DNA from: an uncultured virus (IMG/VR IMGVR_UViG_3300032255_000165)
Lineage: Duplodnaviria; Heunggongvirae; Uroviricota; Caudoviricetes
Length of the DNA stretch: 64,000 nucleotides
Reading direction: 5' to 3' (one strand)
Virus record (IMG/VR): IMGVR_UViG_3300032255_000165
How positions within the stretch are numbered: position 1 is the first letter of the stretch; every line of letters begins with the position of its first letter. The notes under the pieces are model-generated. The model was not told the origin of the DNA. It did not search any database and saw only the letters and a list, made by a program, of their open reading frames with translations. The translations under genes and the position numbers were made by a program. Shown here one piece after another: positions 6,951 to 33,980 of this stretch.

Positions 6951-7360
6951 CAAAACGTAACAGCCTATTAGCGCAAATTCACATTGCCAAAAAAGAATTA
7001 AATATGGATGATGGTGATTACCGGGCGTTCATCAATCGCCATACCGGCAAATCATCGGCCGGGGCACTGAACGAAAAACAATTACATGCGTTGCTTGACG
7101 CTTTTAAAAATCATGGGTTTAAACCAAAATCCAAAAACACATTTAAACCAAAATCTAATAAACCATATGTGCGGTTGATTTATGTTCTCTGGAAAAAACT
7201 TTCTGATGCCAACGTCACCCATAAAACCGGATTAAACAAATTTGTTAAAAGCCAAATCGGTGTTGATTCCGTTGAATGGTTGGACAATTCCCAATGCCAG
7301 CAAATTATCGAAGCCCTGAAAAAATGGGCAAAAAGGAAGGATGTGTCCCTTGCCAAATGA
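6947..7360 (+). CDS. gemA: GemA (Mu gp16, DUF1018) family protein
   Basis: LAQIHIAKKELNMDDGDYR...TGKSS...LW...QIIEALKKW; ATGA-coupled to the methyltransferase. Confidence 0.88.
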   Translation: MTKRNSLLAQIHIAKKELNMDDGDYRAFINRHTGKSSAGALNEKQLHALLDAFKNHGFKPKSKNTFKPKSNKPYVRLIYVLWKKLSDANVTHKTGLNKFVKSQIGVDSVEWLDNSQCQQIIEALKKWAKRKDVSLAK

Positions 7361-7739
7361 TAATGATAACGATAAACAGCTAACGGATTCTATTCGTGAC
7401 GTTAGCGAACTTTGTGGCGTTCAGTTGGCGGCCGCGCTGGTTAAACATTTTGGCGGCACACGTCTTTATTGCCCGGCAAATTTAAAAGATCATCATGCCG
7501 TTGTAAAAAAACTTGGACATGATCAAGCCAAACTATTAGTTTCCACATTTGGCGGCATGGAATTGGATGTGCCGATGCATTTATTTAACGAACAAACCGC
7601 CCGCCGCAAACTGGTTATAAAATTGCGCGGTAAATCCATGACTATTGCTTATATCGCCCGCACCGCTAAATGTACGGAACGCCGCGTTCACCAAATTTTG
7701 GGCAATGAAAAGAAAAAATCGCAAAACTCGCTTTTTTAA
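7341..7739 (+). CDS. Mor/C-family late transcription activator
   Basis: LVKHFGGTRLYCP motif; C-terminal HTH (IARTAKCTERRVHQIL); position before lysis genes. Confidence 0.82.
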   Translation: MCPLPNDNDNDKQLTDSIRDVSELCGVQLAAALVKHFGGTRLYCPANLKDHHAVVKKLGHDQAKLLVSTFGGMELDVPMHLFNEQTARRKLVIKLRGKSMTIAYIARTAKCTERRVHQILGNEKKKSQNSLF

Positions 7740-10371: not shown

Positions 10372-10855
10372 AAATAAAGCTTTTGTTAGGCGTTCATATG
10401 TTTTCGACAAATTGCCATTAACGCAAAGTTGCGCCATTCATGGCGTGGCCATTGGCACCGCCCGGCGTTGGAAAAAGAAAGCCACCCAAGATGGTGATTG
10501 TTGGGATAAAGCCCGGGCATCGAATTCCATGACCACCGGCAACATGGATGAAATGTTATCATCCATGGTCAATGATTTTGTCACCATGCATAAAACATTA
10601 TGTGATGAAATCACCAATAACAAAGACATGGACGCCCTGACAAAAATTAACGCGCTGGCAAGCTTGGCCGACTCGTTGAATAAATGCATAGCCGCCGCTG
10701 GCCGGGCCAGCCCGCGTTTAAACCGTCTATCGTTAGCGATCGAAATAATTGAAACGCTGGGTCATTTTATCCAAGAAAAATTTCCAGAACATGCCTTGGC
10801 CTTTGCCGAAGTGATTGAACCCTTTGGTGTAAAGGTTTCAAAAAAATATGGCTGA
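10355..10855 (+). CDS. DUF1804-family protein (probable small terminase subunit)
   Basis: VRRSYVF...TARRWK...GDCWDKAR; precedes the large terminase; GTG start inferred. Confidence 0.8.
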   Translation: MAHNPENKAFVRRSYVFDKLPLTQSCAIHGVAIGTARRWKKKATQDGDCWDKARASNSMTTGNMDEMLSSMVNDFVTMHKTLCDEITNNKDMDALTKINALASLADSLNKCIAAAGRASPRLNRLSLAIEIIETLGHFIQEKFPEHALAFAEVIEPFGVKVSKKYG

Positions 10856-12506
10856 CCATACAAGCAAACGCGAATTTTTAGAAGACCTAGAACAAATCGC
10901 TATCCAGTTCCGGGCCACCATTGAAGCAAAAGTCACCGGTTTCAACCCCGACCCTACCGAAGCCAAAGCCCGTGCCAAAAAAGCATTAGGGGATTTTCGT
11001 TTTTTTGCCATCACATATTTTCCACATTATTTACGCAACAGCGATGATGCCGGATTTAGTCAGTTTCAGAAATGGTTAATCAAAACACTACCGGCCGCCC
11101 TTCAATCACCCGAAGCCGTGGCCATGGCCGTGGCCGCCCCACGCGGTGAAGCCAAATCAACGTATATGTTGATCTTTGCTTTATGGATGGCTTTAAAAAA
11201 ATCCAAGCGATACATGATTTATATCATGGATTCCTATGAACAAGCCGCCGTTGTGGTCGAAGCTTATAAAGCAGAACTTGAAATCAACCCACGCGTCAAA
11301 ATGGATTTCCCAAAAGAAGTGGGGCGCGGCCACATTTGGCGTGAAGGCGAATGCACAACCGTTTCAAACGTTAAATTTCATGCCCGTGGTGCCGGTCAAA
11401 AAATACGCGGACTTAAACATGGTGCGTACCGTCCCGATGCCGTGTTTCTGGATGACATAGAAAATGATGAAAATGTAAAATCCCCCGCCCAACGGGACAA
11501 GCTAGAAGATTGGCTTGATAAAGCCGTTCAAAACTTGGGCGAAGCCGGGGCCAAGTACGATATTTTTTATATCGGCACAATTCTTCATTATGACGCCGTT
11601 CTAGCCCGCACACAAAAAACCCCATTTTGGCAATCCGTCACATTCCAAGCCATCATCCAGTGGCCCACCAATATGGACCTTTGGGAACAATGGGAAGAAA
11701 TTGTCCGCAATGACAGCGTTGATGCCGCGCAATTATTTTATGACGATAATATAGAAGCCATGGAAAGTGGGGCAATTCTATCTTGGCCCGGCAAACGTGA
11801 TTTATTGACGTTGATGAAAAAAAAGGTGGCCATCAAAGACCGTGCCTTTAATTCGGAATATCAGAACAATCCATCCGATGATGGTGACTTTTCAAGGCTG
11901 ACATTTTGGGTTGAACCAAAACCTGATCTTGTTTTATTTGGTGCCTGTGATCCAAGCCTTGGCAAAAAAGGCAAAAGCGGCATTCGTCGTGGCGACCCAT
12001 CGGCCATTTTAATTGGTGGCTTTAATCGCGCACTAGGCACCATGGATGTGTTGGCGGCCGATATCAAACGCCGTAAACCGGGCGTGATCATCGACACCAT
12101 TATAAAATATCAACGCGAATATGAATGTTATTTATGGTTTTTTGAATCCGTCCAATTCCAAGAATTCATGCGTGAACAACTCATTCAAAAAGGAATTGAC
12201 CAAGGCGTCAACATACCCGCCAAACCAGTTATCCCATTGGACGATAAAACTTTACGCATTCAATCATTGATCATCCCTATTGAAGACGAACGCATCCGCA
12301 TTCACGCAAGCCAGAAAGTTTTAAAAGAACAATTGGAACAATGGCCAAACGCCGCCCATGACGATGGACCGGATGCTTTAGAAATGCTTTGGAACAACGC
12401 CATCACACACGGCCATGTGGGTGAATTTAACACCGGTGGCCACCGCACCATGACCCAAATTGCACAACCCGGAATCCTTGGACGTATGAGAAATAGAGGC
12501 AGATAA
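10848..12506 (+). CDS. terminase large subunit (Mu gp28-like)
   Basis: APRGEAKST Walker A, FLDDIEND Walker B, CDPSLG and HDDGPDALE nuclease motifs. Confidence 0.92.
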   Translation: MADHTSKREFLEDLEQIAIQFRATIEAKVTGFNPDPTEAKARAKKALGDFRFFAITYFPHYLRNSDDAGFSQFQKWLIKTLPAALQSPEAVAMAVAAPRGEAKSTYMLIFALWMALKKSKRYMIYIMDSYEQAAVVVEAYKAELEINPRVKMDFPKEVGRGHIWREGECTTVSNVKFHARGAGQKIRGLKHGAYRPDAVFLDDIENDENVKSPAQRDKLEDWLDKAVQNLGEAGAKYDIFYIGTILHYDAVLARTQKTPFWQSVTFQAIIQWPTNMDLWEQWEEIVRNDSVDAAQLFYDDNIEAMESGAILSWPGKRDLLTLMKKKVAIKDRAFNSEYQNNPSDDGDFSRLTFWVEPKPDLVLFGACDPSLGKKGKSGIRRGDPSAILIGGFNRALGTMDVLAADIKRRKPGVIIDTIIKYQREYECYLWFFESVQFQEFMREQLIQKGIDQGVNIPAKPVIPLDDKTLRIQSLIIPIEDERIRIHASQKVLKEQLEQWPNAAHDDGPDALEMLWNNAITHGHVGEFNTGGHRTMTQIAQPGILGRMRNRGR

Positions 12507-12508
12507 AA

Positions 12509-13975
12509 ATGGCAAAAAACAAAAAACATATCAAACCAGAATTTAATGAAGTCACCGTTGCCGGTGGCTCAAACATGGGCAGCTTGTTTTCTGATAAAAC
12601 TATGGAAGCCACGCCAACCAACATTAAAAAATGGCGCGGGTTTTTAATTGATCATCAAGTAGCTTCAACATGGAACCAACGTAAACTTTCTGTCATGGCC
12701 GTTGATTATGAAGTTATCCCCGGTGGCGATGATGCTGTTGATATTGCAGCCGCTGATGATTTGCGGGACCAGTTGGCCAACATTAATTTCAACGCGGCTT
12801 TCCGCAAAATGCATTTTGGCAAATATTTTGGTTTTTCAGTAGCTGAACTGATGTGGTCAAAAACTGGTTTGCGCGTCACCCTTGATCAAATCAAAGTCCG
12901 GCGGCCAGAAAACTTTAAATTTGATCCTAAAACCGGTGATCTAAAATTTTTAGGTGGCGGCAATCCCCAAGGCGAATTTTTGCCCGATAATAAAATGTGG
13001 ATATATACGGTTGATGGCGATTCCGACGACGCCCCCCACGGCCCACCGATTGGTTGGCAATTATACTGGCCCATATTTTTAAAACAAAACGGGGCGCAGT
13101 TTTGGGCCGTTGCGGTTGAAAAATACGGTATGCCCACAGCCACCGGCCAATATCCGCAAGGTGCCGATAAAAAAGCCCAAGAAAATTTGATGGATGCTTT
13201 GCTTGCCATTCACAGCCAGTCGGCTGTTGCTTTCCCCGAAGGATTTGAAGTCAAACTATTAGAAGCCGTGCGCACATCCGGAGGCGATTATCAAAAGTTT
13301 TTGGAATATTGGGACCGGGCCATTTCAAAAGTCATTGTCGGTCAAACCATGACCACGGATGATGGTAGTTCAAAATCACAAGCCACCGTACATAAATCAA
13401 TTTTGGATATCATTGTTCAAGCTGATGCCGATGATATTTGTGACTCATTCAACGACACCGCCGCCAAATGGTTAACCGCATGGAATTTCCCAAATGCCAA
13501 AACCCCCAATGTGCAGAGGCGCATTAAAAAAGCCGAAGACTTAGGAGCCAAGGCGACAAGGGATAAAGCCTTGAGTGAGGCGGCCGGTGCCAAATTGACC
13601 AACCAATATGTCAAAGATCATTATGGCATTGAACTTGAAGAAAAAACCAATGACCCAAGAAACGAGCCAACAAATGACAATTCCGCTTTTAGCGATCCAG
13701 TAAAAAACCAAAATGGAAATTTCATACAACAATTTTCAGACCCGGACGATATCACAAGCCTTGCCGATCAATTGGATGATGTCACATCCATTGAAGTCGA
13801 AGCCATGATTGATGAAGCTAAACAAATATTAAATACATCCAATTCCGTCGAAGAATTCAGCGAACGACTTTTGAAACTTTCGGGTGAACAAGATAATCAA
13901 CAATTGGCCAATATCATTGCCGGTGGCACGGCCGTGGCCGCCATGATGGGCCAAGCGGATGTAGACGATGATTGA
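12509..13975 (+). CDS. portal protein, DUF935 (Mu gp29-like)
   Basis: GFSVAELMW, EKYGMP...GQYP, ISKVIVGQTMTT motifs. Confidence 0.9.
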   Translation: MAKNKKHIKPEFNEVTVAGGSNMGSLFSDKTMEATPTNIKKWRGFLIDHQVASTWNQRKLSVMAVDYEVIPGGDDAVDIAAADDLRDQLANINFNAAFRKMHFGKYFGFSVAELMWSKTGLRVTLDQIKVRRPENFKFDPKTGDLKFLGGGNPQGEFLPDNKMWIYTVDGDSDDAPHGPPIGWQLYWPIFLKQNGAQFWAVAVEKYGMPTATGQYPQGADKKAQENLMDALLAIHSQSAVAFPEGFEVKLLEAVRTSGGDYQKFLEYWDRAISKVIVGQTMTTDDGSSKSQATVHKSILDIIVQADADDICDSFNDTAAKWLTAWNFPNAKTPNVQRRIKKAEDLGAKATRDKALSEAAGAKLTNQYVKDHYGIELEEKTNDPRNEPTNDNSAFSDPVKNQNGNFIQQFSDPDDITSLADQLDDVTSIEVEAMIDEAKQILNTSNSVEEFSERLLKLSGEQDNQQLANIIAGGTAVAAMMGQADVDDD

Positions 13976-15200
13976 CGCAACCCCGGTTCAATTTCAAGAA
14001 GCCATTGATTTTTTCAAATCTAAAACCAAACTTTCAAGTAATGCGTGGACGGATTTATGGGCCGAACAAAACACCAAAGCATTTATCGTGGCCGGTGCCG
14101 TTAAAACCGGGTTGGTCGAAGATTTTCATAACGCTATTCAAAAAGCTATTTCAACGGGCACAACGCTGGATGAATTCAGAAATGATTTTGACAACATCGT
14201 TGCCAAACATGGTTGGTCATATAAAGGCAAACGCGGTTGGCGTAGCCGGGTTATTTATGACACTAATTTACGGGCGGCCTTTAACGCGGGCCGTTGGCAA
14301 CAAATTGAAAAAGTTAAAAAGCTACGGCCCTACCTTATGTATATAGCCGTCCAAGATGAACGCACCCGCCGAAGCCACAAAGCATGGCACGGCCTAGTTT
14401 ACCCTGTTGGCCACAAATTTTGGAACACCCACAATCCGTCGAACGGATGGGGTTGCCGTTGCACGACTAAAAGCCTTTCCGCCCGGGACGTAAAAAAATT
14501 AGGCTACAACGTATCCAATTCTTTGCCGCCCGAAGCCAAGCAAATCAGAAATGTTAAAATTGGCGGGAAAATCACCCAAGTTAAAACCCCGGCCGGGATT
14601 GATCCCGGGTTTGATTATAACGTTGGCCGTAATCGATTAACCGGCGTCACCCCACCACCGGCACCGGGCATACCCGGCCCGGGTAACGGCACAGCAGCAA
14701 CAGCGCCATTACCCACACCCCGTTCATTTAATCCAAAAAACTTATTACCCAGTAAAGGTTATAAAGAAGAAGACTATGCCAACGCATTTTTAAAAGAGTT
14801 TGACGCGGATATAAAAACACCTGTTGTTTTTTTAGATAAATCAGGCGAAGCCCTGCCCATATCCGTTGAACTATTCAAAGATCATTTTAAAGAGTGGAAA
14901 ATAAAAAAATCAGGTCGAGAAATTTATTTACGCATGCTGGCCCAAAACATCAAAAACCCGGATGAAATTTGGTTTGATTGGAAACGGTTAGAAAATGGCA
15001 TCTATCAATTACGGCGGCGGTATCTTTCCAGATTTGATCTAACTGGAAAACAGCAAAGCGGTCTTTCCGTCTTTGAAATCACGCGGGATGGATGGCGCGA
15101 AGTCACAAATTTTGCCCCAAAAAATGACCGCACTAAAGCCGTGCAAGATGAATATATGAACAAGCAGCGCAAAGGCACTTTAATTTATAAGCGGGAATAG
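13968..15200 (+). CDS. MuF (gp30) head protein with C-terminal PBECR2-like nuclease domain
   Basis: MuF motifs (DTNLR, DERTRRSH, NGWGCRC, DPGFDYN), then Pro-rich linker and NPDEIW...RRRYL...GW...TNF...RKGTLIYKR domain. Confidence 0.85.
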   Translation: MIDATPVQFQEAIDFFKSKTKLSSNAWTDLWAEQNTKAFIVAGAVKTGLVEDFHNAIQKAISTGTTLDEFRNDFDNIVAKHGWSYKGKRGWRSRVIYDTNLRAAFNAGRWQQIEKVKKLRPYLMYIAVQDERTRRSHKAWHGLVYPVGHKFWNTHNPSNGWGCRCTTKSLSARDVKKLGYNVSNSLPPEAKQIRNVKIGGKITQVKTPAGIDPGFDYNVGRNRLTGVTPPPAPGIPGPGNGTAATAPLPTPRSFNPKNLLPSKGYKEEDYANAFLKEFDADIKTPVVFLDKSGEALPISVELFKDHFKEWKIKKSGREIYLRMLAQNIKNPDEIWFDWKRLENGIYQLRRRYLSRFDLTGKQQSGLSVFEITRDGWREVTNFAPKNDRTKAVQDEYMNKQRKGTLIYKRE

Positions 15201-15232
15201 AAAAAGCCCGAGGTGCTTCCCGGGCTATTTTT
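15201..15232. terminator. bidirectional rho-independent terminator
   Basis: AAAAAGCCCGAGGTGCTTCCCGGGCTATTTTT. Confidence 0.75.
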
Positions 15233-15275
15233 AAAGAACCATTAGACGCGACATTTGCACCGCTAGGAACCTTAC
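15201..15275 (-). ncRNA. candidate small RNA convergent on MuF-PBECR2
   Basis: Minus-strand TTGATT(15308-15303)-N17-TATATT(15285-15280) promoter; stem-loop; GCCCG/CGGGC terminator with U-tract. Confidence 0.5.
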
Positions 15276-15503
15276 AAATAATATACGCCTAAAAGCCCTA
15301 AAAATCAATATTCAATTTTAAAGCTCAAAACCGCCATTTTTCAAGTTTAAGCTAGTCATGTGGCTGGGCCAAGCTAACCCCCCCCGTTAGGTACCCGTTA
15401 GAATCGCTAAAATCACTATTCAAAATGAAATGCTGGACCGCGCGGATACAATTAAGCCATGATGCCCATTATTGGCGCATTATTTTTTTATGCCCCCGTG
15501 CGT

Positions 15504-15520
15504 TTTCCCTGAACAGTTCA
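15504..15520 (+). promoter_or_regulatory. putative Mor/C activator site of the head (PI-like) promoter
   Basis: TTTCCCTGAACAGTTCA, matches the site at 7754. Confidence 0.55.
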
Positions 15521-15575
15521 TTTAATATCTTTGCCACCGATATTGCATTTTGACCTCACATTAACGAGGTCAAAA

Positions 15576-16724
15576 ATGAAAAAAAAAATTCATATCTTCA
15601 AAACTGGAACACACACACCCGTGACAGGTGGGGCCATTCAGTTTTCCGATAGCGTTGTTAAATCCATCGCCACTAATTATAACCCGGAAAAATACGAAGC
15701 CCCGATTGTCATCGGCCATCCAAAAATGGAAGCTCCGGCTTTCGGCTGGGTTTCCGGCGTTGAATTTTCGGACGGCAACTTATTTGCCGACGTTGGCTTG
15801 ATCAATTCTGATTTTGCCGACGCCGTTAATAAAGGTTATTACAAAAAAGTATCCGCATCATTTTTCACACCCAATTCACCCAACAACCCAACGCCGGGCG
15901 AATACCATTTACGACACGTTGGTTTTTTAGGTGCCGCATCCCCGGCTGTGAAAGGATTAGAAAACGCAACGTTTAGCGACAAACCCGTTTCATTTTCCGA
16001 TGATGACGAAATTGTAACCGTTGAATTTTCTGAAAATTCCGCGTGGGGTTTCAAATCCATTGCCCAAATTTTCAAATCCATTCGTGAATACTTGATTGAA
16101 GACAAAGGCAAAGACGTGGCCGACGTTGTTATACCAACCTATCAAATCGAAAGCTTGGAAAATATCGCCCAAGATGAAAATACCCCGGCCGCCCATAACC
16201 CTGCTTTTGCTGACCCAACAAATCCAAATCCAACCCCAACACCTGATTTGAAAGATAATGACATGCCCGAACAAGCCACAATTGACTTGGATAAAGCCAA
16301 GCAAGAACTAGAAGCCAAAGAAGCCACCCACGCAAAAGTCGTGGCTGAATTCACCCAAAAACAAAACTTGGCCGACGCCAAAACATTCATCAAAGACCTT
16401 GGTGGAAAAGTTCTACCGAGTGAAACCGATGGCTTGGCATCATTTATGGCCAGCCTATCGGATGACACCATTTCATTTGGTGATACCGCCGACCAACCCA
16501 CCATGGAGTTTTTCAAAAACTTTCTAAATGGGTTGCCTGACCGTGTGAATTTTACCGAAGTCACCAGCGAAAACACCTCGGCCGCCACCGTATCATTTGC
16601 CGCCCCGGCGGGCACCGCTGTGAACCAAGATAAATTGCAATTGGACGCGGACGCCCGCGCCCTGCAATCCCAAAACCCCGGCATGAAATATTTGGATGCC
16701 GTCGCCCAAGCCAGCAACGGCTAA
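15576..16724 (+). CDS. Mu gpI-like prohead protease, with probable in-frame scaffold from ~16263
   Basis: IHIFKTG, APIVIGHP, APAFGWV, YKKVSASF, LRHVGFLGAASPAVKGL; low-complexity linker then MPEQ... Confidence 0.88.
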   Translation: MKKKIHIFKTGTHTPVTGGAIQFSDSVVKSIATNYNPEKYEAPIVIGHPKMEAPAFGWVSGVEFSDGNLFADVGLINSDFADAVNKGYYKKVSASFFTPNSPNNPTPGEYHLRHVGFLGAASPAVKGLENATFSDKPVSFSDDDEIVTVEFSENSAWGFKSIAQIFKSIREYLIEDKGKDVADVVIPTYQIESLENIAQDENTPAAHNPAFADPTNPNPTPTPDLKDNDMPEQATIDLDKAKQELEAKEATHAKVVAEFTQKQNLADAKTFIKDLGGKVLPSETDGLASFMASLSDDTISFGDTADQPTMEFFKNFLNGLPDRVNFTEVTSENTSAATVSFAAPAGTAVNQDKLQLDADARALQSQNPGMKYLDAVAQASNG

Positions 16725-33423: not shown

Positions 33424-33697
33424 AATAACCTTTGAATTGTGGGTTGTTGTCTTGCTTGAACAAGTGAACTATAACCCATGACCACATATAAGGGAATGTT
33501 CAATAAAAATTAAATTTGAACACTGCAAACACAAATAATTAGTTTCAAGTTGTAGCCATTAACTTGAACCCCGAGCAAAATTTTAAAAACATTGTTTCAA
33601 GTTAGTGCAATGCGTTGAAATTGCATAACAATTCACGCCAAAATACTATTTTATGCAATACACAATTTAAATAAACTTGAAACAATTTAATTATCGT

Positions 33698-33791
33698 TTT
33701 TGAGGCTGTGTAAGCCTTTGCACATGAAAACCTAATAAAATTACGTCTCAAAAGGGGGCTGAAAAAGTCTCAAAACGCGCGCCCGGCCACA
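33698..33791 (+). repeat. Mu-like right end: R3 (inverted), R2, R1 transposase sites and terminal CA
   Basis: TTTTGAGGC 33698-33706 (inverted); GTCTCAAAA at 33745 and 33767 (22-bp period); ...CCACA at 33791. Confidence 0.72.
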
Positions 33792-33800
33792 GGGCTTAAT

Positions 33801-33980
33801 TGGTAGCGGAGGAGGGAGTTGTGAAAACAAACTAAAAAGTCTGTTTTCATCCTTTCAGGACCATCTCGCAGGCTCGATGTCTAAAAACGCCTCGCGCCGT
33901 TTTTCCGAACCACGGTGCCCTCGCCCGATCCCCCTCACCAACAAAAAAGCCCTACCAGCTTCGCCGGGGGGCTTGTTTAT
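33801..33980 (-). repeat. 180-bp tRNA-linked repeat unit carrying a 17-bp copy of the tRNA-Met 3' end
   Basis: TGGTAGCGGAGGAGGGA at 33801 and at 33981, exactly 180 bp apart; terminator hairpin at 33943-33974. Confidence 0.6.

Follow-up and report, generated by a model that had tools for sequence, protein, structure and literature searches.

Toxin-tailed MuF proteins are regarded as injected effectors whose partners have so far been looked for among small proteins. Here we ask whether such a partner might be an RNA, at a locus in which a MuF head protein ends in a predicted RNase domain. The locus lies in a 64,000-nucleotide stretch of DNA from an uncultured virus (Caudoviricetes; IMG/VR record IMGVR_UViG_3300032255_000165), hereafter the window, numbered from its first letter. 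According to Pfam and PHROG gene annotation, positions 1 to ~33,000 hold a Mu-like transposable prophage in plus-strand orientation. Its genes encode, in order, a repressor, a transposase (phrog_310, 1.6e-139) and a transposition protein; further along are a Mor/C-type late activator (7341-7739, plus strand) and then an endolysin, a large terminase (10848-12506, plus strand) and a Mu-type portal (12509-13975, plus strand). The MuF gene occupies 13968..15200 on the plus strand, and the next gene, at 15577..16724 on the same strand, encodes a head maturation protease/scaffold of the Mu gene I type (PHROG 976, 1e-96), with the major head protein gene after it. Between the MuF stop and the protease gene is a gap of 376 nt (15201-15576). 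The ORF list and PHROG revealed no homologue of Mu gene G between these two genes in the window or in its two closest relatives, denoted L008 and L009; in most MuF relatives, unlike these three, G lies ~100 nt past F.

The MuF protein has 410 residues, and matches Pfam Phage_Mu_F (1.3e-19) as well as PHROG 220, 'minor head protein and DNA pilot' (1.4e-92). Residues 273-408 (~14784-15191) match PBECR2 (1.4e-29), the predicted RNase domain. The active site of PBECR domains is described in PMC5512222 as an N-terminal helix and four strands with a Ser or Thr in strand 4 and a His or Arg in the helix, the Arg standing in place of the His in one PBECR family. An AlphaFold2 model of residues 262-410 (pLDDT 90.5) likewise comprises a helix and four strands; R317 is found in helix 53-68 (model residue 56), which precedes the four strands, and T380 in strand 4 (114-121; model residue 119). 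As modeled, the placement of these two residues is the active-site layout described for PBECR domains in that source. Nine polar positions, namely D290, K311, R317, D332, E333, R350, Y352, T380 and R401, recur in most of 62 PBECR2 domains, and the predicted active site is near-invariant across the relatives. A Foldseek search with the model retrieved 6cp9, a CdiA-CT toxin complex, with a probability of 0.91-0.98 but a weak E of 0.02. In VIA-align all Z values were 4.2 or lower, and the weak matches included RegB, colicin D, colicin E5 and CdiA-CT toxins. These fold matches point, weakly, toward BECR toxins.

A predicted RNA unit at the MuF stop codon

The preliminary description of this DNA had claimed a minus-strand promoter, TTGATT-N17-TATATT, directly behind the MuF-PBECR2 stop, and these boxes are indeed present at 15308..15280. 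In the promoter scan, the -35 box TTGATT maps to 15303..15308 and the -10 box TATATT to 15280..15285, on the minus strand, with a spacing of 17 nt and 9 of 12 consensus matches. Setting the start 7 nt past the -10 box, we predict a non-coding RNA of ~73 nt that runs from 15273 to 15201 on the minus strand, which is the very sequence previously quoted as a ~75-nt RNA with an interrupted hairpin. Folding places that hairpin, P1, at the 5' end (15232..15273), followed by a terminator hairpin, P2 (15205..15226), of 8 pairs (6 G-C) with a 6-nt loop. The U5 tract that would end the RNA (15201..15205) adjoins the MuF stop codon (15198-15200), and the intrinsic terminator proposed earlier corresponds to P2 with this tail. 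In the window P2 could be used on both strands, with folding energies of -14.2 kcal/mol on the minus and -13.7 on the plus strand, and with a T-run on either side; in most relatives, including L008 and L009, it is minus-only.

The RNA had also been said to contain no ORF. This holds in that there is no conserved ORF, although two minus-strand frames exist. One is a TTG frame of 25 codons (15308..15231) for an Arg-rich hydrophobic peptide (MIFRAFRRILFV...), with no ribosome site; it begins within the -35 box, ahead of where the RNA is predicted to start, and lacks conservation, and was therefore rejected as the product. The sole AUG frame inside the RNA has 7 codons, and its AUG is a CUG in L008 and L009. 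Two further candidates in the gap were also set aside. One was a long G-U-rich hairpin at 15228-15312 (-22.8 kcal/mol on the minus strand, -3.6 on the plus strand), which would need a promoter at 15344..15315; it was rejected because its 5' arm coincides with the promoter spacer, a sequence that has diverged in L008 and L009 with no compensating changes, and because its -35 box is not conserved. The other was a ~108-nt tandem duplication, dropped at ~55% identity with gaps and no enrichment of motifs.

Comparison with known RNAs did not yield a family for the unit. An Rfam scan of 14800-15900 gave no match at threshold, the closest family scoring 21.3 bits (gathering score 42) and the lowest E-value being 0.053, and the same scan of 20 related loci gave no match. 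ARAGORN found no tRNA gene over the window. No tandem direct repeats were seen in 15000-15800, and no second match to the conserved RNA core, defined below, in the window. The proposal that the RNA mimics tRNA-Cys(GCA) finds no support: the loop reads U-GCA-AA here, U-UCA-AC in L008 and L009, and is unrelated elsewhere, and ARAGORN recognizes no tRNA in it. Nor is the supposed anticodon-like loop placed as in an anticodon arm, with its 5-bp stem and 7-nt loop; it sits in a loop of ~10 nt. Our search of the literature on PBECR2 and on small or antisense RNAs of Mu-like prophages found no earlier description of the unit.

Taken from the window alone, the predicted unit is not beyond chance, since sigma-70-type promoter-like sites occur at the chance rate (17 found, 17.2 sd 4.3 expected from shuffles) and the fold z-score of the 74-nt RNA is -2.12, with 7 of 200 shuffles equally good. 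It is the comparison with relatives that lifts the prediction well above chance. The locus thereby illustrates how a promoter-plus-terminator unit that seems accidental in a single genome can be recovered by comparison.

Conservation of the unit among related MuF loci

Using four MuF-PBECR2 proteins as the alignment query, we collected 133 relatives from IMG/VR and used the best 80. Among these 80, the closest to the window are L008 and L009, whose MuF proteins are 64-65% identical to that of the window and in which the F-to-protease gap is likewise present. Both carry TTGAAT-N17-TATAAT, aligned to the two boxes of the window and nearer to consensus, while the spacer sequence has diverged. All three loci share an RNA core, UGUCGCGUC(U/G)AAUGG, inside P1. 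The outer stem of P1, AAGG/UCUU in the window, is AGGGA/UCCCU in L008, a compensatory change, and the stem of the terminator differs in sequence in both relatives with its pairing kept. Directly behind this terminator hairpin lies TTTATTTTTTT on the minus strand and TCAAGGGAG on the plus strand, from which we infer that it acts on minus-strand transcription only. An exact 30-mer had no match in viral contigs, and the core pattern was found there only in the L008 and L009 contigs, apart from 3 chance matches in coding DNA. Searches for relatives gave two loci in metagenome contigs, none in genome contigs and none in phage DNA.

The best 80 loci comprise 70 distinct downstream sequences, which we clustered into 60 representatives, 59 with PBECR2 and one, L001, without it; the Pfam PBECR2 model matches 58 of these 59. 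A -10-like box was scored when at least 5 of 6 positions matched, with A2 and T6 required, at 60-110 nt past the MuF stop. By this rule the promoter is conserved behind PBECR2-type MuF genes: the minus strand has a -10 box in 29 of the 60 representatives, compared with 7.1 (sd 2.5; maximum 15 in 200 trials) upon resampling; the plus strand has such a box in 10 of 60, and control stretches of MuF coding DNA in 1-3 of 60. Of the -10 hexamers, 33 lie 70-99 nt past the stop. At least 4 of 6 matches to a -35 box are seen in 13 of the 29 loci, versus 9.5% at random positions (binomial p 8e-7), and the best -35/-10 spacer is 17 nt in 20 of the 29. The Rhodobacter phage RcapMu has TTGAAA-N17-TATATT, its unit residing in a 92-nt spacer opposite RcapMu37/38, and Rhizobium phage RR1-B has TTGGAC-N18-TATATT. 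A lookup of the RcapMu spacer in the R. capsulatus small-RNA Table S1 (PMC5546546), using a 26-nt RNA-sense string and annotation words, gave no entry, a result that is not decisive.

The structure is conserved as well. Over the first 85 nt past the stop the mean fold z-score is -1.5 to -1.7, compared with -0.02 in coding controls, and it falls below -2 in 23-26 of the 60 representatives, compared with 1 of 60 controls. A two-hairpin classifier was also positive on controls and was left out of the evidence. MAFFT with RNAalifold yielded no family-wide primary sequence or consensus, and an 8-sequence subfamily aligns poorly; structural conservation was judged within 14 groups of related loci. 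In most of these groups the z-score is about -2.5 to -8.6, and in 11 of 14 the minus strand has the lower consensus energy (sign test p 0.057). Pair-keeping changes occur across the groups, 49 one-sided (G-U-type) changes on the minus strand against 19 on the plus strand, and 41 two-sided changes against 38. Single-sequence folding energies do not settle the strand (33 versus 26, p 0.18). Where the first hairpin is clear (44 loci), its 9-nt tail is richer in T on the minus strand in 38, on the plus strand in 1 and tied in 5 (p 1.4e-7), an asymmetry inflated by the overlap of the minus tail with the MuF stop codon and the A-rich codons before it; tails with at least 5 T number 22 on the minus strand and 1 on the plus strand.

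On this comparative evidence, we consider it very probable that the RNA gene at 15201-15273 is real. The predicted unit is the local member of an undescribed RNA family in which position and structure are conserved and sequence is not, and whose slot is directly behind the PBECR2 domains of MuF in Mu-like phages that are predicted to be catalytically intact. If so, this branch of Mu-like phages, with hosts of ~35-75% G+C and including the laboratory phage RcapMu, keeps an RNA gene in that slot, and the family would be a new conserved phage RNA motif, absent from Rfam and missed by annotation pipelines.

Association of the unit with the RNase domain

As a control, we scanned 12 distinct MuF loci without PBECR2. 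A -10-like box is present in 1 of these 12, compared with 29 of the 59 loci with PBECR2 (p 0.01), and this lone box sits in tRNA-like sequence. In 4 of the 12, F and G overlap (ATGA), leaving no spacer. In one MuF locus without PBECR2 (L106, ~1625-1670), the MuF stop is followed by minus-strand sequence resembling the T-arm and acceptor end of a tRNA. In a neighbour-joining tree of 71 N-terminal domains, built without support values, the PBECR2-negative MuF proteins fall at 5 separate places, and the window's second-nearest N-terminal relative, L094, is one that lacks the domain.

Five lineages have lost the spacer and also changed K311, R317 or T380, and four of them have sisters that keep both. 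In L056, L065, L068, L074 and L082 the spacer is lost along with K311V or K311A and T380A, while the sisters L018 and L027 keep both. L109 has the K311 loop deleted, together with R317H and T380A; its sister L107, with a near-identical N-terminus, keeps both. L071 has R317L and T380S (sisters L061 and L069), and L050 has K311A and R317K (sisters L035 and L038). The fifth is Pseudomonas phage H72, with K311L, R317M, D332A and T380A. Such residue changes accompany 5 of 8 losses, compared with 2 of 43 loci that keep the unit (Fisher p 4.5e-4); the test is approximate, as the loss side is collapsed to lineages and the keeping side is not. For this comparison the unit was called present by a stringent -10 rule and fold z-scores, and 11 representatives fall in neither class. 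There are exceptions in both directions: L011/L013, L079 and perhaps L073 have no spacer yet keep the residues, and L076 and L081 keep the unit with K311 changed. Phage Mu itself fits the pattern of co-loss, since its F and G overlap by 4 nt with no spacer and its domain is called inactive in PMC5512222. The C-terminal domain and the downstream region appear, moreover, to have been swapped together between L107 and L109.

Thus, on the basis of the association with PBECR2-type MuF proteins and the co-loss with active-site residues, we conclude that the RNA unit is probably coupled in function to RNase activity. In this sense the functional link to the nuclease proposed in the preliminary description is borne out in spirit, through the PBECR2 association and the five-lineage co-loss, though not through mimicry of tRNA-Cys. 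The coupling would offer a first way into the question of whether PBECR2 domains have activity and do harm.

Two types of protein gene were also noted in this position. A family of small ORFs of 82-84 residues, starting MKILRAILRRFGYALVP... and with no Pfam match, follows MuF in one clade (L056 2733-2981, L018 2846-3091, and L065, L068, L082, L027, L028, L040 and L057); it overlaps the MuF stop where the RNA unit is lost and lies past the hairpins where the unit is kept. In L079, a gene for a GapR-like DNA-binding protein (2739-2987; 6.4e-34) overlaps the MuF stop, and there the RNA unit is absent with the RNase residues kept.

Candidate modes of action

How might such an RNA act? The reading that we favor, with a likelihood somewhat short of even, is that it is the RNase's safety partner by cis-antisense action, of the type that lambda OOP exerts on cII. 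A host-type (sigma-70) promoter would drive an untranslated RNA of ~73 nt, with an interrupted 5' hairpin and an intrinsic terminator of its own, the U-tract of which adjoins the MuF stop codon. The sense late mRNA would, in most relatives, read unterminated through the spacer, and the RNA would base-pair with it over the stretch between the MuF stop codon and a point shortly ahead of the next gene's ribosome site. The duplex would be cut, in the manner of RNase III, and the MuF-PBECR2 message would then decay from its new 3' end, keeping the RNase low in lysogens and relative to its neighbors in the operon. Here we infer the existence of the transcript, its pairing with the sense mRNA, the cleavage of the duplex and the direction of the effect. 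We favor this antisense reading over direct inhibition of the RNase because position and shape are shared and sequence is not, as expected when the target is the opposite strand. Because a sense-strand T-tail is found in only 1 of 44 loci, the sense RNA should carry the full complement of the RNA; in the window, however, the sense T-run past P2 may end the sense RNA after an overlap of ~30 nt.

Lambda OOP is a close anatomical precedent, and this too weighs in favor of the antisense reading. According to PMC5869508, OOP suppresses the activity and the toxicity of its convergent target CII, oop and the 3' end of cII overlap by 52 bases, and the hybrid is proposed to be cleaved in an RNase III-dependent manner, with cuts outside cII. 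In both cases a short phage RNA starts from a host-type promoter in the downstream spacer, runs convergent with its target and stops, by means of a hairpin terminator of its own, at the 3' end of that target. The differences are that OOP extends well into the cII frame, while here the U-tract alone reaches the MuF frame; that the target here is a late-operon virion protein with an RNase domain; that there is no sequence similarity; and that the present RNA is predicted from sequence. Since only the U-tract overlaps the MuF ORF, translation of MuF would not be blocked, which is the main weakness of the antisense reading.

Antisense antitoxins of type I offer a second comparison. In the pairs txpA/RatA, bsrG/SR4 and par RNA I/RNA II, a convergent antitoxin RNA overlaps the 3' end of the toxin mRNA, par RNA I and RNA II share a bidirectional terminator, and the toxins are small hydrophobic membrane peptides encoded on short mRNAs. 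A convergent small RNA at the 3' end of the toxin message is a feature of these pairs and is predicted at our locus, as is, in the window, a bidirectional terminator like that of par. The toxic part here would be the last 140 residues of a 410-residue structural protein, made from a long polycistronic mRNA.

The rival that survives best would have the RNA, and not a protein, be the immunity partner of the virion-injected BECR-fold RNase in a direct way: the folded RNA would bind and block PBECR2, or would be its dedicated substrate or cofactor. We regard this direct action as possible but doubtful. The RNA might arise at DNA entry, silencing the injected RNase, and be made constantly in lysogens; the promoter is of the host type, independent of the phage cascade. 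The co-loss with active-site residues concerns a property of the protein and not of the mRNA, and direct action explains it at least as naturally as an antisense effect does. The RNA structure itself appears to be under selection, as judged from the G-U-type changes on the minus strand, and the apparent joint exchange of the C-terminal domain and the downstream region between L107 and L109 points the same way. Against direct action stands the finding that no family-wide sequence or loop motif accompanies the near-invariant active site, as a substrate mimic should have one; the tRNA-Cys loop is not conserved, and neither Rfam nor ARAGORN indicates a tRNA-like fold.

The anatomy that defines type III antitoxins is absent as well. 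In ToxIN, CptIN and TenpIN the antitoxin consists of tandem repeats, is encoded upstream of the toxin gene and in the same orientation, and is processed by the toxin. The unit here is single, downstream and convergent, with no tandem repeats, and the proposed resemblance is in logic only, an RNA neutralizing an endoribonuclease. The slot behind the toxin domain does speak for a direct partner: in the MuF polymorphic toxins described in PMC5576092, a C-terminal toxin domain is typically followed by a small downstream ORF proposed as the immunity gene. The C-terminal toxin domain, a putative partner encoded directly downstream and apparent exchange as a cassette are features that our loci share with those systems. 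They differ in that the slot here holds a predicted RNA gene on the other strand, with no ORF, and in that the setting is that of Mu-like phages of Proteobacteria with PBECR2 domains (PMC5512222). If a direct role were true, the RNA partner would time the enzyme's action once injected and shield lysogens from it, and it would represent a new class of RNA antitoxin, single-copy and convergent, structurally unlike type III and forming a cassette with the toxin domain. With this locus, the control of a phage-delivered enzyme by an RNA becomes open to test.

It is improbable, in our assessment, that there is no RNA gene at all and that the hairpins serve the sense late mRNA as a 3' stabilizer, a processing site or a weak terminator between F and G, the minus-strand promoter boxes being incidental A+T-rich sequence by the ribosome site of G. 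Such a role would agree with the nearly equal folding of the hairpins on both strands in single sequences and with the sense-strand T-run past the hairpin in the window, and in loci with an abutting G the -10 box shares nucleotides with that gene's Shine-Dalgarno region and the -35 match is poor. However, the distance from the -10 box to the hairpin is kept even where the order relative to GGAG is reversed (L061/L069), and likewise where no G follows (the window, L008, L010, L016, L019 and L022). In these loci, which have no abutting gene, the -35 box is TTGAAA, TTGAAT or TTGCCA at 17-nt spacing. The strand asymmetries of the T-tails (38 minus, 1 plus) and of the one-sided pair-keeping changes (49 versus 19) also argue against an element of the sense mRNA.

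Quite improbable, finally, is a trans-acting phage small RNA, or moron, that regulates host or other phage genes and is linked to MuF-PBECR2 by descent only: the F/G-I spacer is a known accessory hot spot, holding anti-CRISPR genes in JBD88a and the gyrase site in Mu, and C-rich, CCUCC-like single strands occur in some subfamilies, but no seed is conserved family-wide, the core has no second match in the window, and co-loss with active-site residues in sister pairs would not be expected.

Other features of the window were noted alongside the RNA unit. Within the gap, 15374-15414 on the plus strand contains a perfect dyad, CTAAC-N6-GTTAG, that is unique in the window; it is followed by a second GTTAG and by TAAAAT, upstream of the protease gene, and at its position L008 and L009 keep CCCCCGTTAG...GCGTTAGA. 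By comparison with the P_I promoter of Mu, the region is a candidate promoter at which the Mor/C-type late activator (7341-7739) may bind.

Past the Mu-like prophage, ~33650-33960 contains two copies of a TGGTAGCGGAGGAGGGA... motif that looks like the 3' end of a minus-strand tRNA gene; ARAGORN calls no tRNA there, and the pair may be an attachment-site duplication at the prophage end. The segment 34123-38380, between two prophages, encodes a staphylococcal-nuclease homologue, two DUF3892 proteins and a SIR2_2-domain protein, and may be a defense island. The second prophage, at 38392-63962 on the minus strand, combines a lambda-type terminase (GpA), gpW and a portal with Mu-type baseplate genes (Gp45, Gp46, Baseplate_J and Gp48) and a D5_N primase-type gene.
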